A stretch of 64,000 nucleotides of DNA from Octopus vulgaris (lineage: Eukaryota), in NCBI GenBank assembly GCA_951406725.2, contig OX597832.1, positions 67,394,001 to 67,458,000 of the forward strand, given 5' to 3'. Both the position numbers and the translations under genes were made by a program. This document shows positions 8,733-62,074 of this stretch, piece after piece. Each line of letters begins with the position of its first letter. The stretch's first letter is position 1. Under the pieces are notes generated by a model. That model was not told the origin of the DNA and made no database searches. It saw only the letters and a program-made list of their open reading frames with translations.

Positions 8733-9109
8733 CTAGAACTAGATTGTAGGATTAAACCCGGCGACATTTATGTCTTCCAGTCAGTACACTGGTTGAATTT
8801 GAATTCTGCACAAAGAAAAGATAAATAAAAATAAAATAAAATAAAATAAAAGGAATAGCTGATGAAATGTGGGGCGACATTCTTTCACTACTGCCAATCC
8901 ACGATAGCGAATAGCGCGTTGTTGCCAAGGTTAAGAGTATGAAAAATGAGGTTGTTCTCAAGAGAATTTGAATAGAGAGAACCAGAAAGATATAAATGAA
9001 GCATTCGTTCCGTCGTTCTAAGGACACTGGAAATTCGCTAACCAGAAACAAAAACTGTAAGATATCAAACCACTTTAAATGGAAAATCCTATTTTTTGTT
9101 ATCATATTC

Positions 9110-9505
9110 AATTCTACTCTAGGCACAAAGCCCAAAATTTTGGAGAAGGGTGGGGGGCAGTCAATTAGATCGACTCCAATATGCCACTGGTACTTAATTT
9201 ATCGATCCCGAAAGGACAAAATGCAAAGTCGACTTTGGCGGAATTTGAACTCAGAACATAAAAACAGACGAAATACCCATTTCTTTACTACCCACAAAGG
9301 GTTAAACACAGAGAGGACAAACAAGGACAGACAAACGGATTAAGTCGATTACATTGAGCCCAATGCGTAACTGGTACTTAATTTATCGACCCCGAAAGGA
9401 TGAAGGGCAAAGTCGACCTCGGCGGAATTTGAACTCAGAACGTAACGGCAGACGAATTACTGCTAAGCATTTCACCCGACATGCTAACGTTTCTGCTAGC
9501 TCGTT
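9110..9505 (-). mobile_element. Two nested/tandem tRNA-derived SINEs; the second carries a Tx1-like 3' tail
   Basis: Core ggcggaatttgaactcagaac (reverse B box) at ~9237 and ~9421. Tail ttctttactacccacaaagggttaaacacagagaggac at ~9281-9318. Confidence 0.8.
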
Positions 9506-10409
9506 GTTTCTTGTTATTTTTGCTATCATCTTAAAGCACTGAAAAACAGCGAGGGTGCATAATCAAAATTACGTCGGATCAAATGCTGGGCGGTATTTCT
9601 TTCAGCTTTCTACGTTCGGAGTTCAAATACTTCTACGATTACATTTGCATTTCATATTTCCAAGATCAATAAAATATAATGCAAGTGAAGTATTGCAGCA
9701 GATGTAATAGATTTTCCCCCTTCCCCCACCCTACAAGTGCTCGCCTTGTGCTGAAATTTGAAACCCTCATACTAAAGCATGAAAAATCGGCGAAGTAGCA
9801 AAGATTTTAGAGATTCAGAAAACATTTTTTGCGGTATTTTCAGGCGCTTACCGATCTGAGTTCTAATCTGTCACGAATAACTTTGTCACTATGCTTTAGA
9901 TCACATAATAATACTCCTCAAGAACCAGTGTTGATGGAATAGATTTATACATAAAGCGCAACGGGCCACGATCGTGGCCGTCAGGCACAGGTCGACAGAC
10001 CACGATCGTGGCCCAGATAGATGCATTTAATTTATGGGCGTCTGTTGGGGTCTAATGACACTCAAACACTCCGATACCCCCCAGAATGCAAGAGGACTAA
10101 TAGTTCTACTAATGACTTTTCAGATGAGGTAAAATTTGCCGCCATTATATACCAAGAAGATATTTTAACTATTTTTGTGTTTTTTTTAATGTGTGCATGG
10201 TAATCTCATTTTCATAAAAGTTATCAGCATAAAAGTTATCTATCATAAAAGTTATCAGCAGTGCAAATTACAGCGCTTTATGGGTTAATACACCCCAACT
10301 CACAATTACGGGTACTATACCTAAACAAAGAAACCAGTGTATTAAACAATGAAAGAAAATCTTGCTACGCTGAAATATATTAGTATTTTACGAAGCATAT
10401 AACTTTTTC

Positions 10410-10616
10410 TTAAAGGCACAAGGCCGGAAATTTGAGGGAAGGGGACTAGTTGATTTCATCGACCCCAGTGTTTCACTGGCACTTAATTCATCGACCCCGA
10501 AGGGATGAACGACAAAGTCGACCTCGGCGGATTTTGAACTCATAACTTAAAGACATATGAAAACCTGCTAAGTATTTTGCCTGGCACGCTAACGATTCTG
10601 CCCACTCACCGCCTTT
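10410..10616 (-). mobile_element. tRNA-derived SINE
   Basis: Same core (tcgaccccgaagggatgaacgacaaagtcgacctcggcggattttgaactc) as the copies at 9110-9505 and 25568-26010. Confidence 0.8.
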
Positions 10617-10765
10617 ACGAAGCTTTTCATAATGAAAATGAAAACCAAACTATTATGAATCTTGGATGAAACATATAATGCCGCTAAATTATACTGAATT
10701 CTAAATGGTGACAGTCATTGGCTTGTGTCCATGATGGAGCGTCACTTTCAAGTAAACAAATATAT

Positions 10766-11157
10766 ATTCAGATGGCTAGTACACTTTACGTTGTCGAGCG
10801 GTTACTGTTTACATCTCGTTCGGAGATTTATTAATGCTTTCAGACAGTTTTTCTAAATCAGTGACAGTGGCTGCTGGGAAAAACATTAAATAGATATTCG
10901 CAAACAGGTCTCTCCAATCGAAAATCGGTGATTACCGTACGTTGACGAGAGGCAAATACCTCGAAACTATAGTCCGTATGTATCACTTAGGTTTTCGAAT
11001 ATCCCTTTGCGAATATCAGAAGGGTAACGAAAGTGTGTCTAAAGCCAGCTGGAGATGATGATCTCCTGGGGCTATAAGCTTCAGTAACACCCACTCCCAG
11101 TGGCTAACCACATTCAGATGGCTAGTACACTTTACGTTATTCTCGTTCGGAGATTAA
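10766..11157 (+). mobile_element. Retrozyme-like unit: 346-bp monomer with terminal direct repeat and one hammerhead
   Basis: attcagatggctagtacactttacgtt repeats at 10766 and 11112. Contains the hammerhead at 10936-10980. Homologous to the reverse complement of the 47447-48248 unit. Confidence 0.75.
10936..10980 (+). ncRNA. Minimal type-I hammerhead ribozyme (U3 core variant)
   Basis: cgtacg-TTGACGA-gagg[caaata]cctc-GAA-actatagt-C-cgtatg: stems I and II pair, stem III is palindromic, cleavage triplet GUC at 10972-10974. Confidence 0.8.
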
Positions 11158-20783: not shown

Positions 20784-20832
<49 letters not shown>

Positions 20833-20835
<3 letters not shown>

Positions 20836-21974
20836 CTATGTTTGACTTTTGCTTTATATCTGTACAAGCTGGCTCCAAGTCTCACCCAGAGAGCTCAAGA
20901 GACAACAGGTTGGAAGTTCACGTTGTTGTTATGCTTAAAGTGCCATATATTTGGGTTTCTTTTTTGGTGTTGTACTAGTGAATGTCTAATACATAAATTT
21001 AAAAAAAAGTTTGTTTTAAACTTTGGGATTACATAGAGAGAATTTTGCGTAGGATATGAGCAGTTCCCATGAGCACTATCTTTTGAATTTCTGCCATTTT
21101 GGGGTTTCCTGGTATCTGAGTTAGGTAGCAATCAGCCCCTTTCGCTATCATTCTCAGGGCACCTATGGTATTGTTTTAGTCTTCAGGTTCCACATTTTGC
21201 TGATTTCTGTTTCAAGATCTTTATATTTGCTCAGTTTTTGGTAGGTCTTGGCAGATACGTTCATATCGATTGGGACAGTCATATCAATGAGGAGGCATGT
21301 TCTTTGTCTGAAGTCTTTCAATATGATGTCTGGCCTATTTGCATCTATCTTTCTGTCAGTTTGAATGGTGAAGTTCCAGAGGAGTGAGATGTGGTCATTT
21401 TCAAGCACTAGAGGTGGTTTGAGTTCCCACCAGATTTTTTCATGGGGCAAATCCAGGTTTTTGCAAATTACCCAGTGAATATATTGTGCAGCTCTATCAT
21501 GCCTGTTGAGGTACTCTGTAGGCGCTAGAAGACTGCATTTGGAGACAACATGAACAATGGTTTCATTTTGTTGTCGGCATACACGACATGTTGGGCTACT
21601 GCCGTTCTTTAATATGTTGGCCTGGTAGTTTCTTGTTGGTAGGCATTGATCTTGAGCTGCTATGATAAACCCTTCTGTTTCAGATTTTAAGCCAGAGGCC
21701 ATTAGCCTTTGATGGGTCAGGGCTTTGTCAATATCTGCATTATTCGCTCTCTTTGGGTATTTGCCATAGAGAGGTTTTTCTTGCCATTTATTATTCAGAA
21801 TATCTAAGGCCGCAGTTTTGGCACGGGTTTTCAGGAGCCTAGCTTTTTCTGTGCTTATTTCTTGTATGTCTATCTCTAATTCCCGAAATTTGTTGTATTC
21901 GGAAGTCACTTAGATATTCCTTTGCCTGTTTTGTTGCTGAGTATGATGCTTTCTTGTTTTCATGTTTTGAGACA
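20833..21974 (-). mobile_element. 5'-truncated R4/Dong element (zinc finger + RLE + 3' UTR) inserted in (AAT)n
   Basis: ORF 21163-21909 has WQEKPLYGKY, AAQDQCLPTRNY, CRVCRQQNETIVHVVSKC, RHD, NRPDIILKD, LIDMTVP and KLSKYKDL. (AAT)n on both sides. Confidence 0.9.
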
Positions 21975-23497: not shown

Positions 23498-25567
23498 ATG
23501 CATTTATTTATTTATTTATCATTGAATATCACGCAGCCTTGTCCGTAGTAAGTTCTTACGTTTATGTGTGTATGTATGTGTGCGTATGTGCGTGTGTGTG
23601 TATATGTATGTATTTGGACAAGTTTAAGAAATCCATAAACAATTTCCTAATCTTATGAGTTCTTCGAATTTTCTTTGTGTTGTGGTTTAGGGAATTTACA
23701 ATACAATGACGTTAAAGAAGAAAACTAAAGCCTTTTCATTTAAAAACATAGCTATACTGATGCCTACTAGATTATTGTATACTATATTTGTATATTTCCT
23801 TGTATTTTTTAAGGATATTATCTTTATTTTCAATATTTTTAAGTTTTTTTTTATGAATGTGAAATTCTCTTAACTTCTTCTTGTATTGATTTTGCTATGG
23901 CTAATAAAATCTAAATATTTTGTGATCTATTTACATTATATTTTTTTTTACTATTTATGATTATAATTTTCTACATATTTTTCAGATTTATTTTACTCAA
24001 TACTTCGTCATGCGCCAAAGATTATAAACATTTATAAACATTACTGTCTCTTGGAAAGACTCACACGTCGTGTCATAACTATTTCAAGAACGATTTAGTA
24101 ACACTTTATTCACTACGCTCTTAGATGATCATTTTACATAGGAGGAATAACTTATATATTAACGTCATGAGTAAAATATTAAAAAGGTGAAGGTTTCTTA
24201 ACTAAGTTGCTCAATTTATTGGAAATAACAGCAAATTTCTCCTAGATTTGCGCGTTTTTATATTAGGCGTTTGACTTTTGTGCAACGAGAGGGATTTGGA
24301 GAGATAATTCATTAAACGATAAATTTATCCGGCGCCTAAATTGAGACCAGTGTCTATTTTGAGGTCTCAATAATCGGAATTGATACTATGATTAACCAGC
24401 CAAATCACCGATCTCAGAAGAATCTTATCCAGTGTATACGGATGCCCTAAAAGTGGTCTTGGTAAATATTCTTCCACTTATGATAAGGTCTGATCAAAAG
24501 AGAAAAGATGATAGATTTGCAAACAATGTGAGAGTTAAGAACATTTCTCTCCCTTCTCTTTTCCTTACTCTCTCCCTTTCGCTTTTCCCTCTCTCCCTCC
24601 GTCTCTCTCCCTTTCACTTACCCCTCACTCCGTCTTTCCCTTTCTAGTTGTGTTCTTTTCTTTACTTATTAATCAATAGAGTCGTAAAGGTACGTGCCTT
24701 TCTGGTTCCGGTTTTAGACGGAGGATCGTAAAGGCGTGAGGTCGATTTCCGGCGGTGCTTTGTATCATTGAGAGAGACACTTTATTTTACCTTGCACCGG
24801 TCCACTCATCTGGCAAAAATGAGTTGTACGTGCATTTCAAAGAGTTCGCCTTGTAACATTCTGTGTCACGCCGAATCTCCCTAAAAATCTTCGTTAAGGG
24901 CACGCCTGACAGTGGAATGCTCAGCCACTTGCACATACATTCACGAACATTCACTTGCACATACATTCGTTCATCGTATCAAGTGGGACACGCGTCGTTG
25001 TAACAGACGAAGAGACAAGCCAATAAAAATATATCACGGCTAACATTATTCCCTCTGCGACACATGTTTCTGAGGCTCGTTTTGCCTGCTAACGAAAGAG
25101 TAATTTTGATCTTAATCACGTTATTGATAATGACGATGATGAGGAGGATGAAGATGATGATGATGATGATGATGATGGAAAAGGTAGTGGTTGGGAGGAT
25201 GAGAGTGGTATGGAAGTTGACGAAAGTGACTCGCCAGAGATGAATGCAAAATCATAGTTACTTTAAATGCTGGAGTGGTAGACTTGTTAAAGCAATGCGG
25301 TGCTTTGTTCACTATCTTTCCGTTCAGACTTCGAATCCCACCAGACTTATTTCTACATTTCATCTCTCCGGGTTCGATAAATTAAAGATCAGTAAAATAC
25401 TAGTGTCGATATAATCTCCTATGTTTCTTCACGAAATTTAAAGCTTTGAAATTAACATAAAATTATTATTTTATCATTTGCCGTCGAAGAAAATACTCTG
25501 CTGTATATAGGTCCAAATCACGAGGTTCCGAGTTCACATCCCGCCATCCCAATATTGCTTTCATCTT

Positions 25568-26010
25568 AAGGCGGTGAGCTGGCAGAAACGTTAGCACGCC
25601 GGGCGAAATGCTTAGCAGTATTTCGTCTGTTCTGAGTTCAAATTCCGTCGAGATCGACTTTGCCTTTCATCCTTTTAGAGTCGATAAATTAAGTACCAAT
25701 TGCGTACTAAGGTTGACCTAATCAACTGGCTCCCTCCCCAAAAATTTCGGGCCTTGTGCCTAGAGTAGAAAGGCTTATCATTATAACCATAAAGGCAGCG
25801 AGCTGGCAGAGTGGTTAGCGCTCCTGGGAAAACGCTAAGCGGCATTTGGTCCGTCACCACGTTCTTGGTTCAAATTCTGTCCAGATCGACTTTGCCTTTT
25901 ATCCTTTCGGTGTCGCTAAATCAAGTACCAGTGAAACATTGGGTCGTTGAAATCGACTAGTCCCCTCCCCCACAATTTCAGGCCTTGTATCTTTAGTAGA
26001 AAGGATTATT
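25568..26010 (+). mobile_element. Two tandem tRNA-derived SINEs
   Basis: Heads ggcggtgagctggcagaa... and ggcagcgagctggcagag..., B boxes gttcaaattc, tails ggccttgt...agtagaaagg. Confidence 0.82.
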
Positions 26011-29322: not shown

Positions 29323-29324
<2 letters not shown>

Positions 29325-29345
29325 TAGCAGTATTGCCCGGCTCGT
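29323..29345 (-). mobile_element. Possible Helitron-type 3' terminus
   Basis: Reverse complement gccgggcaatactgCTAGt next to (TA)n resembles the GC-rich subterminal arm plus CTAG end. Only a short stub is visible. Confidence 0.35.
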
Positions 29346-30046
29346 GCGCTCGTGCGTTCTATGCATGCGCGAATTAAGCTAAACTTGGAGGAATTTCAAT
29401 CAAAATTCAATTATTTTGGTTTTAAAATCAAGCATTTAATGCCATCTATTTTTGCGCTGATGTATTCCATTTCCTCAATAGGAAGTACGTAGAAGCATTT
29501 CATAAATTTTTGTTGATCAAATAATTGCATTGTTGAATTATTCTTTTAGATCAGTATTTCTCAACGGGGATTTCTGTGGAGAGTTTCAGGGAGTCACTGG
29601 CGATGTATCGTATTGATCAAAAATGCGGCCTACTTAAATTTGGTTAAAGTGATTCAAACTGCAGACTCAACGCAAAATGGTCACATTTAATTCAAAGCGT
29701 TAAAAATGTTATGAAAACAATTGGTATGTGTTCACAAAGTCCAAACGATTAATATGAAAAAACCCTCCAAGCCACATCCCGAAAATTCATTTCTTTGCCG
29801 AATTTCAAATTCTTTATTACCCACTAGGGGCTACATAGACAAGAACATGACAATCACGAATGATGATACAATAAGATGCTTTGTGGGATCAATTTAAAAA
29901 TTTGACTGAACAATAAAATCGAATGAAATTACAATTACAATTACAAAGACACATTTACAAATTGACAGAATGCAGTGGGGCGGGTCCGCGGACCCCACGC
30001 TCCCCGCCACGACACTTAGACTTGTGTTTACTTTTTTTTTCCAGGT

Positions 30047-33000
30047 CTATCTCGCATTTGTGAGGGACCTTTTATTCGCCACATTCTTCCACCTTTCATC
30101 GAACACTTTCTTACTCAGGCTCCTCCTCTCCAGTTCTATTTGTCTTTTCAGGTGGAATTTAAAGTATTCCACCAGACTAGAACCGGAGATGAAGTCGCCT
30201 GTTAGCATCCCTTTCACCCGCGTCTTCCATACTGCCTGTTTCGCAATTGAAACCACAGAGAGAAAACAATTCTTACCTTCTTTCGTTAAGAAATCAGGTG
30301 GGCTGATTTTCACAATGGATTCGGCTGATAGCTGTACTCTTCCTCCACTTGACATCAGTTGTTCGGCATAAACCCACATGTCTGTCACCTCCGGGCACCG
30401 CACGATCGCGTGCGAGACGGTTTCCCTGTCTCGCCCACATCTCGCGCAGGTCGGGCAGACTGGGGCACCATGCCTTGCAAGTTTATCCCGAACAGGTAAG
30501 GCTCCTCGGTAACACTGCCAAGCCAAAGACTTCTGGGAATTATCCAGTGCCTTCGGCCCGAATGTACGTTGGAACAGACTGGCCAGCTGATTATCGTCGA
30601 AACCTAGGGTTTCCCCTAGCGTATCATCGTTACCGGCCTCTACAAAACCTCTATAAAACACAGCGGTAGAACCACTGCCGCAGGCATTGCCCGAGCGACG
30701 GAATAGTCGGAGTGCCTTGCGGCACTCCGTGTACCATGTACCCAACTTCGATCTACGATTATACCAGTCTTCCCGTCCACCGAAACTGGTGAACCTGGGA
30801 AACATCTGCTTCGCCAGCGGAGACCACACCCGTTCACCATCCAGATGGAGCCACAGGTGTCTTAGCCTCAGCGCATTTCTGCGCATCATTAGCCACGGCA
30901 TCCCTAGTCCACCCTGTAACGGTTTTTGACAACAAATAGAGCGTTTCACAAGTGGTTTCGAGCCCTTCCACAAAAAGTGAAAGAGCTGTCTCTCCAACTT
31001 GTTCAACCACGAATCCGGGCAAGGCACGACGGCAAGGCGGTAGGTGATCACCGATGCGATAAACACATTGGCTACCTCCGCCCTACCTTTCAGGGATAAC
31101 CACCGCCAAGACCAGGTCTTGACTACTGCGGTCACCCTGCTCGATACCTCGCTCCAGTTCTTCTCTATTTGGAGGCCTGGTCCAAACCAGACCCCGAGCA
31201 ACTTAATCGGGCCCTCCGTCCAACGTCCCACGACGCTGTCTGGAGGCATCGACTTGCCTCTCCAGGTGCCGAGTTGCAAGCCGACTGACTTTTCACGATT
31301 AACCTTTGCTCCTGTCACCGTCTCGTAAACCTCTATGGCCTTGCCTACTTTACGTAGGAGGTCCATTTCGGTCACGATGATAGTGATGTCATCCGCGTAC
31401 GCCGAAACCGACATTCCACGACCTGGCTGCCTCGGGATGCCACTCAGTTTTCGCAGCAGCGGCTCGAGAGCCACTACATACAAAAGCGGGGAGAGCGGAC
31501 ATCCCTGACGGAACAAGCGTTTGACCTTGAACGGCTTAGAAATAAAGCCGTTCACCCGAACTACCGAGTCGACGTTGTCATACAATTCTATGATCCACCT
31601 GAGGAAGCCAAGACCCAGGCCGAACTGAGCCAGGACGGACACCAGGTAACGATGGTCGACCCTATCGAAAGTTTTTGACTGGTCTAAATGGACCACTGCC
31701 TCTCCCTTGCCGGCATCGTTATCCATTCCCTCTATCGTGTATCTAATTAGATGGAGATTATCCTGAATGGTTCTGCCCGGTACGGCGCACGTTTGCGCTT
31801 TCCCGATCAGTCCATTCGCGACAGGCGCCAATCTGATCGATAACACTTTGGCCAAAATCTTCAACTCTGCGTTAAGCAGAGTGATGGGCCTGAAATTATC
31901 AATGACGTCCCCCTTGCTCTGGTCCTTCCTGACTAGTGTCACCACTCCCCGGTTCACAGATCTGGGTATGAACCCATTCTGCTGCCAGTTCGCGTAGACG
32001 TTCGCCAGTAAGTCCCCGAACAAGTCCGGCATACTTTTAAAGAGCTCGTAGGGCAGACCATCCAGCCCCGGCGCCTTACCCGCACCGCAGTCTGCCATGG
32101 CCTCTATTACCTCCTCAGGCGTGATCGGCTTCTCACTACACTCCGCGTCCTGCCCCGAGAGCCGCGGCAGTCCGTCAAGGAGGTCCGTAAGGTCCCTCCT
32201 CTCATCCGGCCCGCCGCCACCCCCAAAGAGCTGGGCGAAGTGGTCCTGAAAAGCTTGACACATCTCCTCGGGCTCGTCTGTCAACTTACCTTGTTGGTTC
32301 GTCAGAGATCGAATTGTGGCATCGTTGCCACGTTGGGCTTCCACCACTCGGGCCCATCTCGCGGCATTAATTCCTTCGCTCCCCATTGTACGTTGTCTAG
32401 CTCTGACAATGCAACCCATGTGTTTGGCTTCGAGGTGCTGGTTTAAAACCAGTCTCTTGGCCTTCACCTGAGCCGCGTTGCCAGTTCGCATTGCTTCCTC
32501 TAGGTCCTTAACTAGAGTAGTTTCTTTTCTAGCCTCTCTAGCTACGAGATCTATACTATATCTAATGGACTCATATCTTATGGCTCGCTTGAGGGCATAC
32601 CACCATTTGTTATTGATAATGGAGCCGGTCATGGCCCTCTGGATCATTAACCTAATCCTGTCACTGTACTCCTTAATCGCCAAAAGGGACGTATTAAGTT
32701 TCCAGTAACCAGGACCTCTATTTATCTTATCTACGTCTAGCTTACAGGTGACCATCTTGTGGTCACTGTAGCTGACTATGTGGAGCTGTGGACTCTTAAC
32801 TAGGTTTCTATCTACCTTCCTAATTAAAATCCTGTCTATGTATGACCTTGACGATCCGTCGCTGTTTGTCCATGTCCACAATGGAGCGTCCGGATGTTCC
32901 AGTCTATATGGATCTACCAGCTCAAAACGTCTTAGTAGATCCAGGAAGCAAGCATTTCCTTTCCTGTCTGTTTGCGAGCCTACACAGTCTACCCGCACAT

Positions 33001-33439
33001 TGCAGATTGTGTTGTAGTCTCCTAACATTACTAAAGGGCACGATGTACTGAGAAACTTCTCCAGGTTCCGAAAATACTCACTATTCCCTTTATTATTGGG
33101 GGCGTAAACCGCAACCAGTCTGATTGTCTTACGACTGCTGAACGTCAAATCAACGACGACCAGCCTACCTTCTGGATTTGCAAAAATCAACTTTTTCCCA
33201 GAAACCCGGTTCTTTTTCACCAGGACAAACACCCCACTTCCGCCGACCGACGGGTTCGGAGAGATAATTCTCTCGTAACCGTCGAACAGCGGGAGCAGAT
33301 CTCTTGGCCCTTTTAACCGGGTTTCTGTGGCAACATCAACATCTAAATCCCGTGACCTGATGTCATTTAGGAAGCGCCCTTGCTTCCGGCTCGCCATCAG
33401 GCCACGCACATTTACGCATCCTACACAAATACGAGACAT
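30047..33439 (-). CDS. ORF2 polyprotein: APE endonuclease + reverse transcriptase + C-terminal zinc finger (1130 aa)
   Basis: APE motifs NVRGL, ATETRL, VYAPN, LGDYN, IDRIL, SDH. L1/Tx1 linker GPGYWKLNTSLL. RT motifs APGLDGL, RPITLLN, DQSKTFDRVDH, RQGCPLSP, YADD. Zinc finger CARC...ETVSHAIVRC. No stops. Confidence 0.96.
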   Translation of the reverse strand: MSRICVGCVNVRGLMASRKQGRFLNDIRSRDLDVDVATETRLKGPRDLLPLFDGYERIISPNPSVGGSGVFVLVKKNRVSGKKLIFANPEGRLVVVDLTFSSRKTIRLVAVYAPNNKGNSEYFRNLEKFLSTSCPLVMLGDYNTICNVRVDCVGSQTDRKGNACFLDLLRRFELVDPYRLEHPDAPLWTWTNSDGSSRSYIDRILIRKVDRNLVKSPQLHIVSYSDHKMVTCKLDVDKINRGPGYWKLNTSLLAIKEYSDRIRLMIQRAMTGSIINNKWWYALKRAIRYESIRYSIDLVAREARKETTLVKDLEEAMRTGNAAQVKAKRLVLNQHLEAKHMGCIVRARQRTMGSEGINAARWARVVEAQRGNDATIRSLTNQQGKLTDEPEEMCQAFQDHFAQLFGGGGGPDERRDLTDLLDGLPRLSGQDAECSEKPITPEEVIEAMADCGAGKAPGLDGLPYELFKSMPDLFGDLLANVYANWQQNGFIPRSVNRGVVTLVRKDQSKGDVIDNFRPITLLNAELKILAKVLSIRLAPVANGLIGKAQTCAVPGRTIQDNLHLIRYTIEGMDNDAGKGEAVVHLDQSKTFDRVDHRYLVSVLAQFGLGLGFLRWIIELYDNVDSVVRVNGFISKPFKVKRLFRQGCPLSPLLYVVALEPLLRKLSGIPRQPGRGMSVSAYADDITIIVTEMDLLRKVGKAIEVYETVTGAKVNREKSVGLQLGTWRGKSMPPDSVVGRWTEGPIKLLGVWFGPGLQIEKNWSEVSSRVTAVVKTWSWRWLSLKGRAEVANVFIASVITYRLAVVPCPDSWLNKLERQLFHFLWKGSKPLVKRSICCQKPLQGGLGMPWLMMRRNALRLRHLWLHLDGERVWSPLAKQMFPRFTSFGGREDWYNRRSKLGTWYTECRKALRLFRRSGNACGSGSTAVFYRGFVEAGNDDTLGETLGFDDNQLASLFQRTFGPKALDNSQKSLAWQCYRGALPVRDKLARHGAPVCPTCARCGRDRETVSHAIVRCPEVTDMWVYAEQLMSSGGRVQLSAESIVKISPPDFLTKEGKNCFLSVVSIAKQAVWKTRVKGMLTGDFISGSSLVEYFKFHLKRQIELERRSLSKKVFDERWKNVANKRSLTNAR

Positions 33440-33600
33440 TTACTTACCTTTATGTCGGTGTCCCTGTTGGTCGGGGGGGTGAAGTCCGCTTTAATAAGTG
33501 ACTCGTGTACATCGAGCCGCGGACCCCTTATGTCCCCTGAATACTGCGCATTTAAAATATTAAAGTTTAGCAAATCCATTTTGTATATTTCTACATTTTT

Positions 33601-34992
33601 TTAAAATTTTCTGTGCGTTTGTATTTTTTCAGCGGTTGGGATGTTTCCCATCCCGCTGCTTAAACTGTCGTTGTCTTTGTTGATGGCTGCATAAACTACT
33701 TGGAACTCCGTGATTTTCTTTTGGGGGCTTTGTGGGGGTGATGGGGAGAAGGGGGAGGAGGAGTTTGGGGAGGAGCACGGGGAGGTCATTTGGAGGGGAG
33801 GGTAATGTATGGTACTGTGGGGTGGGGGTGATTCGTGTTGGTCTGGGGGGGTCTTATCTTTTTTTTCCTTTTGTGGAGAACCGTGTTTGGGTGGGGTGGG
33901 TTTCCCCCCCTGGGTGTTACTCTTTTTTGTATTATGGTTGGGTATATTTACGTCCGTACTTTTTCTTTTTTTCATTTTTCTGGGTTTCACGAAATCGTCA
34001 TCCCCCTCTTGTTTCTTTCCTTCTTCTGTTTCCGTCGTTTTCTTCCTCCTCTCCTCTTCTTCAGCTTTTTTCCTTGCTTCTTCTTCTTCTTTCTTGCGGG
34101 TGGGGCATTCTGCTCGGATGTGGCCCTTTTCTCCACACCCGTAGCATCTGGGCTTACGCCCTTCGACCACCACCCGCAAGTTTATTTCGTCGTCGAAATT
34201 AATGAATTCAGGCACCTCCTCTAACGTTTCCGGCGCCGCTTGCACTATTATTTGTAGTGCTTGTCCCTTCCAATTCTCCTTCTGGGTTCTGACGATGTCT
34301 ATAATGTTGATTTTTTCTTTCAGTCCCATAAATAGGGCTGGAATGAGGCTTTCTACCTCAATTTCTGGTAGTATGTCGTCTATTTTGATTTTTATTGTTC
34401 TTCTTCCCATATACGAGGGGAGAAGAATTATATCTGTTGATTTTAGAGGGTTGATCGAGTGTTTCCTCGCCTGTTCCTCCTCTTTAAAGTAAACCATTAT
34501 GGTTGCATACTTCTTACCCCATGTAACGAAATCAATGTCTGTCCATATTGGTTTGAGACACTTTTCAGCCTGCTCCTTTGTTATTTTTTCTATTTTTCTT
34601 TCCTTAATTACAAAAGATTTAAAAATTACCGCTTTCTTCATGGTGCTGGTTTTTATTTCTTGTGGGAGGGTGGCTTTTATGTTGTTCCCCTCCCTTTTGT
34701 ACCTGTCCTTGTATTTGTCGTAATCAATGTCCTCTGGTAAAATATGTTCGGTTTTTCTGCCGGCTGCGGCTGCGAAGTTAACCGTTTTTTTCACGTTTTC
34801 AACTGCTGGTACACTTGTTTTCGAATTTTCTGCTTTCATCATATTTTTTTCCTGTGTAGGTGAACCTACAATATTTTTTTCCTCCTTTGTAGGTGAACCT
34901 ACAATATTTTTTTCCTTTGTAGGTGAACCTACAATATTTTCTTTTTTTGAAGGTGAACCTTCATTGGCAAAATGTTCAACTGTTTTTTCCAT
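33601..34992 (-). CDS. ORF1 Gag-like nucleic-acid-binding protein with CCHC zinc knuckle
   Basis: CYGCGEKGHIRAEC knuckle; lies directly upstream of ORF2; ATG at 34992. The frame stays open past the TAA to 33421. Confidence 0.88.
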   Translation of the reverse strand: MEKTVEHFANEGSPSKKENIVGSPTKEKNIVGSPTKEEKNIVGSPTQEKNMMKAENSKTSVPAVENVKKTVNFAAAAGRKTEHILPEDIDYDKYKDRYKREGNNIKATLPQEIKTSTMKKAVIFKSFVIKERKIEKITKEQAEKCLKPIWTDIDFVTWGKKYATIMVYFKEEEQARKHSINPLKSTDIILLPSYMGRRTIKIKIDDILPEIEVESLIPALFMGLKEKINIIDIVRTQKENWKGQALQIIVQAAPETLEEVPEFINFDDEINLRVVVEGRKPRCYGCGEKGHIRAECPTRKKEEEEARKKAEEEERRKKTTETEEGKKQEGDDDFVKPRKMKKRKSTDVNIPNHNTKKSNTQGGKPTPPKHGSPQKEKKDKTPPDQHESPPPHSTIHYPPLQMTSPCSSPNSSSPFSPSPPQSPQKKITEFQVVYAAINKDNDSLSSGMGNIPTAEKIQTHRKF

Positions 34993-35217
34993 TTTCACAC
35001 AAATGGATTTTTTTTTTGTTAGATTGTGTCAAAACACACAATATATTTCACACTATTTCCCCTCCTTAAAGGAGGGGAATAACAAAATTTTCCTGGTTCA
35101 AAAACCAGTTAAAGTTCAGTATAACAATTTAACAAACAATTTTTAAACAAACAATTTCAACACAATTTTAACAATATTTTAGCTCACGTGAAAAAACACC
35201 ACCGACTCCTTCAAAAA

Positions 35218-36977
35218 TTCTTTGCCGAATTTCTGATTTTTTATTACCCACTAAGGGGCGACACAGAGGGGGACAGCAAAAGACATGGGGACATAGAACA
35301 TTATAATTAAACTTTATGAACATGAATTGTTAAACGAAAAAAATGATAAAATGAAAGCGATACCAACGGCCCCGTCCGTCAGCATCACTTACTTGTCCTT
35401 TGTTTTTCATAGTCACTTGAATGTTCTTTGCCAATACGAATAAATTCCATATCCATTCTTACTCCGAAATACTCATCCATATTTTCCACGAATTCATCGC
35501 TCATTCTTATATCTTTCACCTCCCAATTCTCCCTTTCACACCTCCCCATAAACTCACCTATGTTCTTCTTTTCAATCACAGCATACCTAGTCTCTCCAAC
35601 ATCATACCATTTATACTCTTCCATTAGACTTTTAACTTCTTTCTGTTCAGTCATAGTACAAATGTACGGCCTGGGTTCGCTTTCAATCTCTTGTGTGTGT
35701 GTATTCTTTTTTTCTTTTGTTTTCTTGTTGGGGGGAGCGGGTGGGCTCAATGTCTGCATGGATAGGGTGGGACTCAGAGGGTGTGGGTGGTTTTGGGGTA
35801 GATTGGAGTTCCATATTATTTTCTTTTCCACGTATTCTTCTCCTCCTCTTACTTCCAGCTTCCTTCCATTTCTGTGTATTCTCTTCCTCTGTTTCCTTCT
35901 CCTCTGGTTTCTGCTTCTCTCTCTCTGGTTCGGAATCCATTTCTTTCCCTGGGGGAGGGCAGAAGGCTCTTATGTGACCCCTCAGGCCACACTTGTAACA
36001 ACGTGGAGCCCTGCCCTCCACCCACACTCTCATGATCACGTCTCCCAGTCTGATGCTTTCCGTCAGGTCCACCAGTACCTCGGTCTCTGCCTGTACGTTC
36101 AGCTCCACTGTTACGCCTCTCCAGCCCTCGGACTTAACCGAGGCATGGAGAATATCCACCTCGTCCTCGTGGCCGCTGATCACAGCCGCCACAATCCATT
36201 CTGCCTCCACGTTTGGTGGCACTCCCTCCACCCTTATTCGTGTAATCCTCCTGTTTAAATACGTAGGTAATAGGGTTACCTTTTCTGACTTCACCGCCTT
36301 CGCCGCCATCTTCCTCGCTGCAGACTCAGTTTTGAAATGCACAACTACGGTACCGTACTTGGATCCTCGAGTCAGAAAATTTATTTCCTCCTCAGTTCTT
36401 CGCAGGGCTTCCTCTATCCATTCCATGGTTACAACTTCTACCCTCTTCCTTTCGTTTGCGAACACCCTGTAAATAATCGTCCTCTTATCATACCATTCTT
36501 TTCTCCTGGGTGTCGGTGATAGTTCCACCTCACCGCTTTCCTTTTTCATGTATTTCTGGTAACTTGCCAACTTGGCCATGTCGACCCTTTTCTCTTCCGC
36601 CTTCTTGGTTACACCGGCATAGGTATAACCCAGCTCATCTTCCAAATTCCTTGCTGCCATTTCTAGCTCCTTCTCAGACGTAGGCAGGTCTGATAAAGAC
36701 TCGAAAACTCCAGCCCTTTCTTCCATCAGCTCCATTGCAATTGCCCGTTCCAGTTCCTCATCTGTCGTGGACAAGTCTGTTAGAGACTCATAGTCCATTT
36801 CCTTTCTGTCTGACAGACCGAAAACGGCCGCCAAAACAGAAAAAGTGTAACGCGCTGAACGAGCGATACGCGAAACCGCGTCAACGCCGTTCAGAATTTC
36901 CACAACAACAACAACGCTTTTTGTTCTTTTTTACCGAATTTTACGAGCGTAAAAAAACACGACCGACTCCTTCAAAA
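35218..36977 (-). mobile_element. Non-autonomous ORF1-only Tx1-related element (HAL1-like), unit 1, 1760 bp
   Basis: Near-identical to 36978-38745. Encodes an ORF1 homologue, has no EN/RT, and shares terminal sequences with the autonomous element. Confidence 0.85.
35385..36798 (-). CDS. ORF1-like CCHC protein of unit 1 (main frame 36798-35683; C-terminal part in a second frame to 35385)
   Basis: CYKCGLRGHIRAFC knuckle. RGSKYGTVVVHF / LLPTYLNRR / VWVEGRAPRC align with WGKKYATIMVYF / LLPSYMGRR / VVVEGRKPRC of the autonomous ORF1. Confidence 0.8.
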
Positions 36978-38745
36978 TTCTTTGCCGAATTTCTGATTTG
37001 ATTTTTTATTACCCACTAAGGGGCGACACAGAGGGGGACAACAAAAGACATGGGGACATAGAACATTATAATTAAACTTTATGAACATGTATTGTTAAAC
37101 GAAAAAAAATGATAAAATAAAAGCGATACCAACGGCCCCGTCCGTCAGCATCACTTACCTGTCCTTTGTTTTTCATAGTCACTTGAATGTTCTTTGCCAA
37201 TACGAATAAATTCCATATCCATTCTTACTCCGAAATACTCATTCATATTTTCCACGAATTCATCGCTCATTCTTATATCTTTCACCTCCCAATTCTCCCT
37301 TTCACACCTCCCCATAAACTCACCTATGTTCTTCTTTTCAATCACAGCATACCTAGTCTCTCCAACATCATACCATTTATACTCTTCCATTAGACTTTTA
37401 ACTTGCCTCTGTTCAGTCATAGTACAAATGTACGGCCTGGGTTCGATTTCAATCTCTTGTGTGTGTGTATTCTTTTTTTTTCTTTTGTTTTCTTGTTGGG
37501 GGGGAGCGGGTGGGTTCAATGTCTGCATGGATAGGGTGGGACTCAGAGGGTGTGGGTGGTTTTGGGGTAGATTGGAGTTCCATATTATTTTCTTTTCCAC
37601 GAATTCTTCTCTTCCTCTTACTTCCAGCTTCCTTCCATTTCTGTGTATTCTCTTCCTCTGTTTCCTTCTCCTCTGGTTTCTGCTTCTCTCTCTCTGGTTC
37701 GGAATCCGTTTCTTTCCCTGGGGGAGGACAGAAGGCTCTTATGTGACCCCTCAGGCCACACTTGTAACAACGTGGAGCCCTGCCCTCCACCCACACTCTC
37801 ATGATCACGTCTCCCAGTCTGATGCTTTCCGTCAGGTCCACCAGTACCTCGGTCTCTGCCTGTACGTTCAGCTCCACTGTTACGCCTCTCCAGCCCTCGG
37901 ACTTAACCGAGGCATGGAGAATATCCACCTCGTCCTCGTGGCCGCTGATCACAGCCGCCACAATCCATTCTGCCTCCACGTTTGGTGGCACTCCCTCCAC
38001 CCTTATTCGTGTAATCCTCCTGTTTAAATACGTAGGTAATAGGGTTACCTTTTCTGACTTCACCGCCTTCGCCGCCATCTTCCTCGCTGCAGACTCAGTT
38101 TTGAAATGCACAACTACGGTACCGTACTTGGATCCTCGAGTCAGAAAATTTATTTCCTCCTCAGTTCTTCGCAGGGCTTCCTCTATCCATTCCATGGTTA
38201 CAACTTCTACCCTCTTCCTTTCGTTTGCGAACACCCTGTAAATAATCGTCCTCTTATCATACCATTCTTTTCTCCTGGGTGTCGGTGATAGTTCCACCTC
38301 ACCGCTTTCCTTTTTCATGTATTTCTGGTAACTTGCCAACTTGGCCATGTCGACCCCTTTCTCTTCCGCCTTCTTGGTTACACCGGCATAGGTATAACCC
38401 AGCTTCTCTTCCAAATTCCTTGCTGCCATTTCTAGCTCCTTCTCAGACGTAGGCAGGTCTGATAAAGACTCGAAAACTCCAGCCTTTTCTTCCATCAGCT
38501 TCATTGCAATTGCCTGTTCCAGTTCCTCATCTGTCGTGGACAAGTCTGTTAGAGACTCATAGTCCATTTCCTTCTGTCTGACAGACCGTAAACGGCCGCC
38601 AAAACAGAAAAAGTGTAACGCGCTGAACGAGCGAAACGCGAAACCGCGTCAACGCCGTTCAGAATTTCCACAACAACAACAACGCTTTTTGTTCTTTTTT
38701 ACCGAATTTTACGAGCGTAAAAAAACACGACCGACTCCTTCAAAA
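36978..38745 (-). mobile_element. Non-autonomous ORF1-only Tx1-related element, unit 2, 1768 bp
   Basis: Tandem duplicate of unit 1 with scattered substitutions and homopolymer indels. Confidence 0.85.
37151..38567 (-). CDS. ORF1-like CCHC protein of unit 2 (main frame 38567-37449; C-terminal part in a second frame to 37151)
   Basis: 372-aa ORF nearly identical to unit 1, overlapped by a 149-aa downstream frame. Confidence 0.8.
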
Positions 38746-38829
38746 TTCTTTGCCGAATTTCTGATTTTTTATTACCCACTAAGGGGCGACACAGAGGGGG
38801 ACAACAAAAGACATGGGGACATAGAACAT
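38746..38829 (-). mobile_element. 3' fragment of a third ORF1-only unit
   Basis: Junction motif plus attacccactaaggggcgacacagagggggacaacaaaagacatggggacatagaacat, then an abrupt switch to mariner-like sequence. Confidence 0.85.
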
Positions 38830-39474
38830 GTCATCTTTGGTGCTAGAAGGAAATGTTTTGGTCTCTCGCTCAACTGCGCCCTACGCATAATAATCAGTTG
38901 TGTTGCAGTCTGGTGAGTTGGTGGCCAGATGTTAGGGGTGATGTGGTTGCAGAAATTGTTTGATATCCATGAAAGGGTCATCCTGCTTGTATGGCATGGT
39001 GCAGAGTCCTGTTGCCAGACTTAGGGTCTTCCAGAAGCCACCCTCTTGACGCATGGCAGCACTACCTCCTCAAGGCATTTCATGTAAGTACCCCCGTGTT
39101 TTGAGTGAAGTTGTGTGGAAAGATGAATGGAGGTATAACGTCGCTGTCACTAGTGATCACTCCAAACACCATAGTTTTGACTGAATGTTTTACCTTTATT
39201 ACTCTCGATACATGTGCTCGGATTGCAATGTCCACCGATTGACACCCAAACACTCTGAAATCATCCTATTGGAGATTCCGGTGCGAATGCCAATCACTAT
39301 AGCATGCGGTTCCTCATTTCTGGCTGAGTGAATTGCGATATGGTGCTCTTTTAATTACTGACGGTGCCCTGCTGACCCTATTATACTGTGTAGCCGTCAA
39401 AATCAAATACAAACAATGCACATGCGCGATATGAAATATATAACATGGTGACAATTTACCCATTGTACACTGTA
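38830..39474 (-). mobile_element. Degenerate Tc1/mariner-superfamily transposon fragment with one probable terminus
   Basis: Minus-strand translation WQQDSAPCHTSR...NFCNHITPNIWPP followed, after a frameshift, by an SPDCN-like motif. Candidate TIR (ta)cagtgtacaatgggtaaattgtcaccat at ~39445-39474. Confidence 0.7.
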
Positions 39475-46835: not shown

Positions 46836-47661
46836 CTCCCTCTCTCTCTCACTCTGAGTCTCCCTATATATATTACATATATATATATATATGAGGTAAC
46901 TTCTTTCCATTGTTCAGGTGGCTTGCACACCTCAATGTCAACTGTAATTTAACCTTGAACATCTCGAACTCAATTAACTGTTCATTAATATTTCAATCAC
47001 TTTCTGGAGAAAGCAAACACAAAACATCTCAAATTAAATCAATCGTACGTAAATAGACACACACGCTCACAGCCACACGCGCATGCGTGAATGCATTCTC
47101 ACATACACACATAGACGCATATTAGATATTTTGGTTTCTCCCAGTCAATCATCTGAATTCATTTCTGAAATACATTCATAGTCTTTCATTGGTAATGCAT
47201 TTCTTTGCATATATAAATGTGAAATATTTCCGGTCAACTTCATTTTGGAGCTCGAAGTAAGGTATAGGATAATGCTGAAGCATTCAACTTCAAGTCCATC
47301 GTGCCTTATAGGAGAAACAACTGTAAACTAATGCAGCTCATATTACGTTTGTTTTGCTATTGTAATTGTTTGTAAACACGCCCACACATACATGCATTAC
47401 ATGCAAAAACACACGCACACTCATATATATATATGTGTTTATATATAGCAATAATAATTCTCTAAATGAGATATAGACAGTGACTGCTCCATAATATAAG
47501 GGATATTAGCCAACTGAATATGGCTAGGGACAGGGCAGGGTGGTGGGGGTGTCACTGTTGCATTTAGCCCCAGGCGAACATCAACGTCACCAGATAGGCC
47601 GACGCCATCACGGCGTCCTCTATCTTGCAAAGGGAGATCATTCACCAACAAGCGGATACAA

Positions 47662-47707
47662 CACACGGACCTAGGTTTCAAGGTGTATTGCCTATTATCA
47701 ACGTGTG
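47662..47707 (-). ncRNA. Minimal type-I hammerhead, U3-A8 core variant (unit 1)
   Basis: Reverse complement: cacacg-TTGATAA-t-agg[caataca]cct-t-GAA-acctaggt-C-cgtgtg. Confidence 0.72.
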
Positions 47708-48017
47708 GTAGGCATCGCTTCTCGATGAACGACCAACAGTGCAAGATATATATAAGGATTTTCAAGTAAATACATTTACTGATTTCGAAAATCCGTTCGA
47801 CAGCAATAATAATTCTCTAAATGAGATATAGACAGTGACTGCTCCATAATATAAGGGATATTAGCCAACTGAATATGGCTAGGGACAGGGCAGGGTGGTG
47901 GGGGGTGTCACTGTTGCATTTAGCCCCAGGCGAACATCAACGTCACCAGATAGGCCGACGCCATCACGGCGTCCTCTATCTTGCAAAGGGAGATCATTCA
48001 CCAACAAGCGGATACCA

Positions 48018-48063
48018 CACACGGACCTAGGTTTCAAGGTGTATTGCCTATTATCAACGTGTG
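48018..48063 (-). ncRNA. Minimal type-I hammerhead, U3-A8 core variant (unit 2)
   Basis: Identical motif to 47662-47707; stem I can be extended (tacca/tggta). Confidence 0.72.
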
Positions 48064-48290
48064 GTAGGCATCGCTTCTCGATGAACGACCAACAGTGCAA
48101 GATATATATAAGGATTTTCAAGTAAATACAATTACTGATTTCAAAAATCCGTTCGACAGCAATAATAATTTTCTAAATGAGATATAGACAGTGACTGCTC
48201 CATAATATAAGGGATATTAGCCAACTGAAAATGGCTAGGGACAGGGCATATATTTATAAATACACACACACTCATATATATATATATATA

Positions 48291-48509
48291 TTTCTTTACT
48301 ACCCACAAGGGGCTAAACACAGAGGGGACAAACAAGGACACACAAGGGGATTAAGTCGATTACATCGACCCCAGTACTTAATTAACGACCCCGAAAGGAT
48401 GAAATGCAAAGTCGACCTCGGCGGAATTTGAAACCAGAACGTAACGGCAGACGAAATACCTCTAGGCATTTCGCCCGGTTTGCTACCGATTCTGCTAGCT
48501 CACCGCCTT
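48291..48509 (-). mobile_element. tRNA-derived SINE with Tx1-like 3' tail
   Basis: tttctttactacccacaaggggctaaacacagaggggacaaacaaggac, then the SINE core, then the head end gctagctcaccgcctt. Confidence 0.82.
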
Positions 48510-48512
48510 ACA

Positions 48513-50740: not shown

Positions 50741-51205
50741 TTCTACACTGTCCTAAATCTTTTGTCACCACATAAATTATTTGACCCTTTGTTCTTGAAT
50801 TCTTGACCTGCCCTTACCCCCATCTTACAATTATTGAAATGTTCTTACAGCAGTCAGTAGTGAACAAAGTTTTGGTCAGTTTGCATTCAAACTACACTAC
50901 CTCATGTTCCTAAGATTCATATCTACATCTTTATCTGTATATTTACCTTCCCTAAGATGTTATTAATTGATCTGAGAACTTTATATTATTGGAAAACCTA
51001 TATAAAATTAGCTGAAGATTACTCGGCGTCTTAAATCTGCTGTAATATTTACAGCTTATAATAAAATGTTGTAGTATAAAACAATTGTACTTTCTACACT
51101 GACCTAAATCTTTTGTCACCACATAAATAATTTGACCCTTTGTTCTTGAATTCTTGACCTGCCCTTACCCCCATCTTTACAATTATTGAAATTTTCTTAC
51201 AGCAG
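50741..51205. repeat. ~110-bp direct repeats 351 bp apart
   Basis: ttctacactg...ctaaatcttttgtcaccacataa...cccttacccccatc...ttcttacagcagt at 50741 and 51092. Confidence 0.85.
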
Positions 51206-51345
51206 TTCAAATTCCGCCGAGGTAGGCTTTGCTATTCGTCCTTTCGATGCCGATAAATTCAGTACCAGTTGCACACCGGGGTCGATCTAATCGACTGCTC
51301 CCCTACCCCAAAGTTTCGGGCCTTGTGTCTAGAGTAGAAAAGAAT
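51204..51345 (+). mobile_element. 5'-truncated tRNA-derived SINE
   Basis: gttcaaattccgccgagg...ggggtcgatctaatcgact...gggccttgtgtctagagtagaaaag. Confidence 0.75.
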
Positions 51346-53231: not shown

Positions 53232-55351
53232 TATATATTCAACCACGTGCTTTCACACACCAACTTTCTCACCTATATATAAAACACGTGAGACCGAAAA
53301 TGCCGCAGAAGACTAATACCTCGGATAAAACTACAAATGAAGACATACTTAAAGAACTTAAAAGTATTAATGCACAACTCATTACCTTAAATAACAAAAT
53401 CGAGGACTCAAATCTACTCGCCCGGGAAAGGAAAAACAGTGAAGACACAACTCGCTACACTGACTAGGTTAGTAATGATTTACAACTGTTATACACAACA
53501 CTAAATTCAATTTTCATTAACAAATCCGACAATAAACAACACACACCAAATGAAACACACCAGGACATACGCACTCAAATCAACCCAACAAAAAGAAAAA
53601 TAGGAAACATTTGGAATACAAACCTGCACAATAGAAAACTCGCCTTCTGGAACATGATAAAAGATTCCAACAAAGCAGATATATACGAGGGATGGATGAA
53701 CGCAACTTCAATTATCCTCCCACGCAAATTCCAGATAAAAATAATACCCAACGAACCTGACGGACAGAGAACTATTAGGGAATGGTCAGCTCTATCCAAT
53801 TTAAAATCAGAAATAGAACTACTAAAACTTAGGGCCTCCACAAATGAGAAAAAATATAAAAGCATCGACGAGGAGATGCACAATGAAATACAAAAACAAA
53901 CAGAGGGACAACCCCTCGAAAATACACTAAATCGTTGGAAGGAAACCTAGGAAAAAAGCAACGATTTCTTCCAAAGATATGCGTCAATTTTCAAAAATGA
54001 ATTGGGTACAGATAATCCCTTTCTTAAGAAAATTACAAAAAATAAAAAATAAAACCGAACAACCCACAAACCACCCCCAACTATCCTCCATACACTAGAA
54101 ACAGAATTCACCCACAACCAACATTTTCGAACCACGCAAGACTTAACAGGAAACAAGCTGACAGACAATGCGTCTATGAAATAGATTACACCAAAAACAG
54201 AACACACCAACAATATCCTAATACCAGACCCAACCACCACATAACAGCACAAAGCAACACCAGAATAAGAAATACACCACACACAAGTCGCTACTACCCC
54301 ATGAACCAAAATTACTGGTCCCCACCGAACACAAGACAAACGCAAAAAAACACTAAGTCAAGCAACATCCCACATACAAGCAATTCGAAACAAAAATATT
54401 TCACATACAGACATTTTACACACACCACAAACGAAAACAACCATAGATTCCCACACACACACAACAATCGGAGGCAACAATACCACCGTTCCCCCGATCC
54501 AATATCACACAACCTCACAGACAACTCATACAAACAAAATTACACCCAACATTTTTTAGCCCGGGACCAGAGACACCAGGACACAGGCTGGAACCTAGTA
54601 ATAAGGAAAAACCGAAGATAATCAACCTTTCAACCAAACCTCACTCTAACATAAAAATTGACATCCTCTCAAAAGGGCTCAAATTTACGCCAACTCCACG
54701 CAGAGCCAACCTAAATGAAATCAAGGATAATATAACAGAATTCTGCTGAAAATTAAGACTAGCAGAAGCATCAACCAGTTTCAATACTGAAGATGAATTA
54801 CTAGTCAAGAACAAAAGTGAACACATCCCCCACAAAGGAAGAAATAAAGATCTTGACGAATTCTGCAGCCACATTGAGAACTTTCCCTACCATGCTATAC
54901 ATAAACAGACAGTTAACTCATATTTTAACACTACACAGTGGAAGGAACTGATATAAGTTCAAAATGAAGATATAACCATTAAGGAAGCAGACAAAGGAAG
55001 TGCAGTTGTAATAATGGATACATCATACTATAGAAATCTTGTAATTTCCTTGCTTGATGACAATCAACATTATGAAAAAATCACCAACTACACTCCGCAA
55101 AAAATAATGAAAACTATCTTCACTAATTAAAACCCATGAAAAGGAACTAACAACCAAAGAGATTGACTTTCTAACAAACTTTAAAGGCAAGCCTCTTCTA
55201 TGGACTGCCAAAAATACATAAAAGCCAAATTATAAATGAAACCATTAAAAAATCACCAAAGACATACATACACACACCTAACTCGGGGGACCTAAAACTA
55301 CGACCCATTGTAGCTGGCCCAACCTGTGAAACACACATATTAAGTCTATTT

Positions 55352-61997: not shown

Positions 61998-62000
<3 letters not shown>
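57846..62000 (+). mobile_element. Near full-length, decayed R4/Dong retrotransposon (RT + CCHC + RLE) between (AAT)n tracts
   Basis: N-terminal TREEYISILHAYF...KIWKE...KLANVRRNI; NWKAPGHD; RPITCLP; EEQKGC; AWIDYRKAFDSIPH; RGIFQGDTLSP; YMDDLKLY; YKYLG; CRICGDGQETINHIISGC; RHD; NRPDIVVRD. Ends at (AAT)n at 62001. The 5' boundary is inferred. Confidence 0.9.

Positions 62001-62073
<73 letters not shown>

Positions 62074-62074
<1 letters not shown>

Follow-up and report, generated by a model that had tools for sequence, protein, structure and literature searches.

The locus described here raises the question whether a 3' end that is common to several retroelements also means that one enzyme moves them all. 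It lies in a stretch of 64,000 nucleotides from Octopus vulgaris (GenBank assembly GCA_951406725.2, contig OX597832.1, positions 67,394,001 to 67,458,000 of the forward strand; in the following termed the window) and contains a long interspersed nuclear element (LINE), shorter units that encode only the first LINE open reading frame (ORF1) and copies of a short interspersed nuclear element (SINE). In the original prediction it was claimed that one Tx1-type enzyme serves all three tiers, i.e., the autonomous, the Gag-only and the SINE tier. Our analysis supports that the LINE, the ORF1-only units and the SINE have a 3' cis-element of an L1/Tx1-type lineage in common, and the statement that one enzyme serves three tiers is too strong. 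We regard it as fairly probable that the tail is an RNA signal recognized by the reverse transcriptases (RTs) of one L1/Tx1-type lineage, on which the ORF1-only branch depends, with the SINE probably being moved by sister enzymes.

The LINE and the common 3' tail

The LINE is full-length and encodes ORF1 and ORF2 on the minus strand (29807..35217), with the same 16-mer on either side. Its ORF2 (30047..33439, minus strand) is open over 1130 aa and contains an APE endonuclease, an RT and a C-terminal zinc motif (Pfam matches PF03372, PF00078 and PF13966). Among solved structures the LINE-1 ORF2 protein (ORF2p) is the best match (E 3e-64), while R2 is matched with an E-value of 6e-21. With this set of domains and with L1 ORF2p as nearest structure, the LINE belongs to the L1 group of retrotransposons without long terminal repeats (non-LTR elements). 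The Tx1 clade is marked by an ORF1 with a CCHC knuckle instead of the vertebrate L1 ORF1 type. The LINE ORF1 (33601..34992, minus strand, 463 aa) shows a weak zf-CCHC match (E 5.5e-4, slightly under the curated cut-off) and matches no Pfam family of the kind seen in vertebrate L1 ORF1, and the CCHC motif is present in all three ORF1s, i.e., in the LINE and in both units; judged from these motifs, the LINE is a probable member of the Tx1 clade. The stop of ORF1 may be premature, as the frame stays open beyond it to ~33424; of the C-termini of 16 homologues, one is matched by the stretch across the stop (0 of 500 shuffles).

The LINE tail (29810..29837, minus strand) carries a predicted hairpin at 29819-29831 followed by AATAAA. 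The tails quoted in the original prediction are present, for the LINE from 29810 (claimed 29809), for the SINE from 48292 (claimed 48291) and at 9281, and for the units at ~35237, ~37002 and ~38765. As ORF2 and ORF1 run on the minus strand, the quoted strings do mark 3' ends, but they are the reverse complements of the true ends; moreover, the SINE copy at 9281 deviates at several positions from the quoted SINE string.

The last 80 nt of the elements were compared by local alignment, and each score was set against 5,000 dinucleotide shuffles and against 12,686 segments of the window. The SINE at 48292 matches the LINE at 22 of 24 nt (score 38) and the second ORF1-only unit over 48 columns (score 46), and the unit matches the LINE over 28 columns (score 39); in none of these three comparisons did a shuffle or a segment score as high. 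The SINE at 9281 matches the second unit with a score of 35 (1 of 5,000 shuffles, 0 of 12,686 segments). When both strands of the window were scanned with the last 50 nt of the SINE, the other SINE copy scored 83, the unit tails 47, 47 and 42 and the LINE tail 38, with all remaining positions at 23 or less. Both by shuffles and by window-wide ranking, the common tail thus exceeds chance, and the earlier remark that the SINE tail is closer to the ORF1-only unit than to the LINE holds as well (48 columns versus 24 nt). A different LINE clade with a better match to the SINE tail had been named as the finding that would overturn the idea; none was found in the window's remaining LINE-like elements. 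The Dong/R4-like and Penelope-like ones were considered as tail donors, and their 3' ends do not rise above background (23 or less). The SINE and the LINE have homologous 3' ends as in a stringent SINE/LINE pair, the homology being short (24 nt) for the SINE tail discussed so far, termed tail A.

The ORF1-only units and the array

Two ORF1-only units and the remainder of a third one follow on the minus strand. Unit 1 (35234..36977, 1,744 bp) carries ORF1 at 35683-36798 (371 aa), a second frame at 35385-35654 (89 aa) and the hairpin at 35246-35259. Unit 2 (36994..38745, 1,752 bp) carries ORF1 at 37449-38567, the second frame at 37151-37420 and the hairpin at 37011-37024. Of the third unit the last ~68 nt are left (38762..38829, hairpin 38774-38787). 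No RT was found in the units, neither in the list of open reading frames nor by Pfam. The first ~50 nt of the units (36929-36977 and 38697-38745) are common with the 5' end of the LINE (35166..35217, minus strand; score 53, 0 of 3,000 shuffles). Over 179 aa, their ORF1 and that of the LINE are only 38% identical (E 2e-44), which shows the units to be an old relative and not deletion products of the window LINE. With an ORF1 homologous to that of the LINE, no ORF2 and LINE-like 5' and 3' ends, they are HAL1-like. A word-index protein search with the unit ORF1 gave no match, and a profile search gave 882 proteins at E up to 0.001.

The second frame of the units, counted above from its ATG, is open over 35385-35729 and 37151-37500 and overlaps the end of ORF1. 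The change of frame lies near runs of C and A, the lengths of which differ between the copies by net 3 nt. No homologue of this frame was found, and its interpretation as the C-terminal domain of ORF1 behind a frameshift found no support (negative profile; best of 16 pairwise tests 25 of 500).

All elements of the array lie on the minus strand. In the orientation of the elements, a transposase-like remnant is followed by the tail fragment 38762-38829, a spacer, unit 2, a spacer, unit 1, a spacer, the LINE, a spacer and the host flank, i.e., the LINE, both units and the tail fragment are arranged head to tail with an identical 16-bp spacer between the members. This 16-mer occurs exactly four times in the 64 kb, each time directly after a tail and at all four array junctions: at 29791..29806, where it runs into the host flank and is likely the target or a target-site duplication (TSD), and as exact 16-mer at 35218..35233 (between unit 1 and the LINE), 36978..36993 and 38746..38761, all on the minus strand. 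The window LINE and the ORF1-only units accordingly have a common insertion spacer, which is probably a TSD; the identical 16-mer at four junctions may reflect a target preference with long TSDs as in the Tx1 clade, although a single locus cannot show specificity. On the 5' side of the tail fragment, which adjoins the transposase-like remnant, the spacer is absent, and it was probably lost at this end of the array by deletion.

Arrays of this kind are also found outside the window. An ORF2 alignment search of GTDB gave 45 loci, 41 of which are in CAXXMW01 contigs that contain head-to-tail arrays of related LINEs. In these arrays a family-specific spacer of a length similar to 16 bp stands behind each tail, and among the 19 complete units fetched, a short spacer also precedes the two 5'-truncated ones in the same way as the full-length ones, as expected of a TSD. 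Tandems separated by TSDs have been published as a sign of repeated insertion, in passages on crocodilian SINEU-3/Tx1-Mar (PMC4494074) and on Drosophila R1 (10.1101/158386). As the spacers of the sister arrays behave as TSDs and such tandems are on record, the array is most likely the record of one site that was used repeatedly by at least two families.

For the units, the family here consists of two near-identical adjacent copies and a fragment, and a competing view is that unit 1, unit 2 and the fragment go back to one inserted unit that was duplicated locally in tandem, and represent a single insertion. The two units are separated by 22 substitutions over 1.74 kb, which do not point to selection (nonsynonymous and synonymous proportions pN 0.0096 and pS 0.0127, p 0.45), and both have the identical break between ORF1 and second frame, as this view would have it. 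An additional 5-nt repeat at the 3' end of unit 2, which is what slippage at insertion would be expected to leave, speaks against it, although this is a weak point. We regard local duplication as a serious possibility that falls somewhat short of an even chance; it would leave the conclusion on the shared tail untouched.

At the target no RNA gene, whether for ribosomal, small nuclear (snRNA) or other RNA, was detected among the 150 of 160 Rfam matches listed, nearly all of which are microsatellite artefacts. That the 5' ends of the elements are copies of host flank beyond the 16-mer was considered and found unsupported (344 and 1,269 of 3,000 shuffles). The array flanks gave no Pfam family in six frames with stops read as X, so that mariner-like and hAT-like are putative labels. 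The remnant at 38830-39460 (minus strand) is a decayed transposase-like sequence that is cut off at the array, with motifs that we take to be those of Tc1/mariner. In the host flank (29324-29790) an AT repeat stands beside the end at ~29324; this end is presumably Helitron-like and the one at ~29553 presumably hAT-like. The target of the array may lie ~250 bp inside a DNA transposon.

Two SINE tails, sister LINEs and the predicted hairpin

In the SINE a single head and body is combined with either of two interchangeable tails, which diverge at a single point. Seven copies in the window are recognizable enough to be typed, of which two bear tail A and five tail B, and there are three fainter matches. 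The tail-A copies lie on the minus strand at 48289..48510 (hairpin 48301-48313) and 9279..9504 (hairpin 9290-9302). Neither is located at the 16-mer, as the former lies in an AT/GT microsatellite and the latter directly adjoins a 5'-truncated tail-B copy (9101..9278, minus strand). The remaining tail-B copies are found at 10406..10617 (minus strand), 25567..25775 (plus strand, hairpin 25749-25761), 25792..26005 (plus strand) and 51204..51342 (plus strand, 5'-truncated, hairpin 51318-51330). Two tandems are formed in this way, one at 9101-9504 with tail A followed by truncated tail B, the other at 25567-26005 with two tail-B copies head to tail; the second copy of the latter has a flanking direct repeat of 16/20 nt that none of 300 random sites equaled. 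An A-box-like motif is present in all five copies with a head, and a B-box-like motif is visible in the alignment, with none of the five matching the strict pattern; ARAGORN predicted no transfer RNA (tRNA) gene and the Rfam scans contained no tRNA. The SINE is a probable tRNA-derived element (SINE2). It presumably resembles the octopus families OR1 and OR2 and may be identical to them.

Tail B does not match the tail of the window LINE in any of its five copies. All five match tails of the fetched sister LINEs, with 0, 0, 0, 0 and 2 of 400 null trials as good (best of nine tails). The ORF2s of these LINEs are 37-39% identical to the window ORF2, which groups with the fetched families as sister in a quick tree (33 rows, no named Tx1 or L1 reference; SH-aLRT 100). 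The 53 distinct 3' ends that were fetched are all on one strand. The window SINE was not detected by nhmmer in the 45 fetched loci, and an exact-pattern scan of GTDB with the SINE tail gave no match.

The loci L001-L039, L042 and L044 from CAXXMW01, a bacterial metagenome-assembled genome, contain intact LINEs of 6.4-6.9 kb from several families, in one orientation and with short spacers. In the main group ORF2 is 91-94% identical, and ORF1 identity goes down to ~50%. These contigs are probably eukaryotic DNA in a bacterial bin, and their arrays recall telomeric or satellite-like retrotransposon arrays. In L012 (10110-10150) and at equivalent positions a second hairpin lies between the conserved hairpin and AATAAA, with arms that are family-specific yet complementary; it is absent from the window tails. 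At 3036-3199 and 9961-10137 in L041, a distant relative (27% ORF2 identity) is flanked on one side by an intact U1 snRNA gene and on the other by a second U1, of which the 5' part is replaced by an A-rich end; this suggests that the L041 element targets U1.

The core that is common to the tails is a predicted hairpin with a stem of 4 bp and a loop of 5 nt, shortly upstream of an AATAAA-like signal. All tails examined, whether A or B, have two complementary arms, the first of 4 nt, around a loop of common pattern that has 5 nt, or 6 nt in the units; the stem is reduced to three of its four pairs only in L001 and in two decayed tail-B copies. A gap-free alignment was made of ten sequences: from the fetched families seven of the nine tails, from the window the LINE and the two tail-A SINEs, with the units and the tail-B copies left out. 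In the hairpin register 39 of its 40 cells are paired, compared with 25-62% in slid registers. Two stem pairs are G-C in the seven fetched tails and C-G in the other three, with the same loop. In the LINE, in both tail-A SINEs and in the three of three fetched tails that were folded, the hairpin comes out as the minimum-energy fold. A descriptor of hairpin plus signal found nine sites in the window, all nine in these tails, compared with a mean of 0.21 in 100 shuffles; this descriptor is post hoc, written after the data had been seen.

Several points weigh against reading the tail as a recognition signal of one lineage. The flipped pairs represent one evolutionary event counted three times, and eight of the nine fetched family tails fall in one close group with ORF2s 91-94% identical to that of L012; as there is a single event and the fetched families are mostly close kin, the flips are suggestive and not proof. 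The proposed check by aligning and folding thus yielded a conserved predicted stem-loop, but a short one that for most tails is no more stable than shuffles (z -0.2 to -1.4), and in the units and the one tail-B copy folded it is not the minimum-energy fold, the folds of the units using another register and the loop of the units having 6 nt. Plain alignment of tail A with the fetched tails is not significant (71 and 122 of 400), nor is that of tail A with tail B (398 of 3,000), so that the homology of the two tails rests on structure and position. Although the matches of the LINE to the SINE at 48292 and to the unit are significant, the match between the LINE and the SINE at 9281 is marginal (score 28; 7 of 5,000 shuffles, 5 of 12,686 segments), and the 24 nt of the SINE-LINE match include the poly(A)-signal-like part. 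Among the 19 complete fetched units, from a search seeded with ORF2, none is ORF1-only. As to the suggested comparison of TSDs, the LINE and the units have the 16-bp spacer, while flanking duplications of the SINE are clear in one of six copies tested, with two borderline (2 and 14 of 300).

That the enzyme of the window LINE family literally moves the LINE, the units and the SINE would account for the common tail and, for the LINE and the units, the same 16-bp spacer. Of crocodilian SINEU copies, only 13-90% lie at the target of Tx1-Mar (PMC4494074), and because SINEU is so often off-target, two off-target SINE copies do not decide against one enzyme. What makes it unlikely is that neither tail-A SINE is at the 16-mer, that five of seven copies bear a tail that is found in sister LINEs and not in the window LINE, and that the SINE tail matches the units over 48 columns and the LINE over 24, which points to an unsampled partner. 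Less likely still, and in our view improbable, is a reverse flow, in which an abundant SINE was the source of the 3' end and poly(A) signal of the LINE and the ORF1-only family and the match would be uninformative on the SINE's mover; the SINE is common with its seven recognizable copies, and the unit tail is nearer to it than to the LINE, but the same-loop hairpin occurs at the same place in sister LINEs from contigs with no SINE detected, so that the motif belongs to the LINE lineage. Convergence, i.e., the independent origin of a pyrimidine-rich stretch, a small hairpin and AATAAA as transcription-end signal, would suit a core of 13 nt plus signal with unremarkable fold energies, and is made very improbable by the shuffle and window-wide ranks and by the fact that the two different SINE tails each fit one branch within a single LINE clade.

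The reading of the tail as a signal recognized within one L1/Tx1-type lineage starts from the sharing of sequence, the array with its identical 16-bp spacer, the two SINE tails on one body and the same-loop hairpin in sister LINEs. From these we infer binding by ORF2p, the direction of borrowing and the identity of the enzyme that moves the SINE. An ORF2p of the lineage would bind the 3' hairpin and prime reverse transcription at the target nick. Target-primed insertion would duplicate ~16 bp and regenerate the site, so that LINE and ORF1-only RNAs could insert repeatedly. The ORF1-only family would be an old non-autonomous branch similar to HAL1 or HeT-A, the RNA of which brings its own ORF1 protein and borrows ORF2p from the window LINE or from a sister with the same target. 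By template switching the SINE would have acquired its tails from two or more families of the lineage, and the enzymes that move it would probably be those of sisters in which the choice of target is looser or different, and not the enzyme of the window LINE alone. Taken together, the system functions in the manner of a stringent SINE/LINE partnership to which a Gag-only tier is added.

The window contains further repeats. A broken Penelope-like element (53400-56856, plus strand) shows an RT fragment and, by eye, a GIY-YIG-like motif, and Dong/R4-like RT fragments with AAT-repeat ends lie at 59940-62074 (plus strand) and 20784-21909 (minus strand). A pair of 750-bp inverted repeats (635-1383 and 62609-63357), 94% identical, lies between AAT microsatellites, and a 356-bp tandem repeat is present in 2.3 copies that are 98% identical (47447-48248). 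At 10936-10980 (plus strand) a weak match to a type I hammerhead ribozyme was found (28.3 bits with a gathering threshold of 34, E 0.008). This repeat mix resembles the one reported for octopus in a section of PMC13282606.

Known systems and meaning for octopus SINEs

Tail sharing and tail exchange are known, and so are ORF1-only LINEs, the target preference of Tx1 and tandem arrays; the combination is less usual. In passages on plant and algal L1-clade pairs (LINE1-1_ZM with ZmSINE2/3, L1-1_CR with SINEX-3_CR), a conserved 3' hairpin with compensatory changes and a tail-sharing SINE are likewise described (PMC3472496, PMC3747384); the window differs by its animal-type lineage, its CCHC ORF1, its target-site arrays and another loop sequence. 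The table of 58 SINE/LINE pairs in these sources lists three L1-clade pairs and no Tx1 pair (PMC3472496, PMC3747384). For crocodilian Tx1-Mar/SINEU, passages describe a Tx1-type enzyme that moves a SINE, prefers sites inside other repeats and leaves tandems that sandwich a TSD; there the link was inferred from a common target and snRNA heads, and SINEU ends in poly(A) (PMC4494074), whereas in the window the link is the common 3' hairpin and the SINE has no common target. HAL1, HeT-A and Ag-Sponge likewise retained the 5' end, ORF1 and the 3' end and lost ORF2. They derive from L1, Jockey and CR1, with none from Tx1 listed in the passage concerned (PMC5786205), and the window unit differs in standing in a spacer-separated array with an autonomous relative. 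Drosophila R1 forms head-to-tail arrays of non-LTR elements with identical target duplications between them, according to a section of 10.1101/158386, yet in ribosomal DNA and in another clade.

The exchange of tails is reported for mollusc SINEs, in passages where one body carries alternative LINE-derived tails of 35-61 bp from CR1, CR1-Zenon, L2, Nimb or RTE partners (PMC4824008, PMC11481361, PMC5786205); in the window both tails lead to one L1/Tx1-type lineage. In the main text of neither of two of these mollusc papers does the word Tx1 occur (PMC4824008, PMC11481361), and in the parts concerned the octopus SINEs OR1 and OR2 are named CORE-SINEs (PMC4758252, PMC4824008). A partnership of short elements with the L1/Tx1-type group is seldom reported; no Tx1-tailed SINE was found in the literature searched, a search that lay outside Repbase, Dfam, SINEBase and subscription papers, and the window elements may already be annotated in Repbase or Dfam.

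Published work left open if the L1 group ancestrally had strict 3' recognition. A direct test of this ancestry is offered by a hairpin that is conserved in an animal lineage whose ORF2s are 37-48% identical, with G-C and C-G stem variants and passengers that occur naturally. In the O. vulgaris assembly 11.6% is reported to be SINE sequence, with most of the recently active SINE families unclassified (PMC13282606); as octopus SINEs are abundant and the recently active families mostly unclassified, the partner lineage is useful to know. Tentatively, and with less confidence than for the tail signal itself, we propose an animal L1/Tx1-type lineage that uses strict 3' stem-loop recognition instead of poly(A), forms self-renewing arrays, supports a Gag-only tier and drives a major tail-swapping SINE family. 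If true, the SINE would swap tails between sister branches to track the active enzyme, and this tail-based partnership between Tx1 and a SINE would name the engine behind much of the octopus-type SINE expansion.
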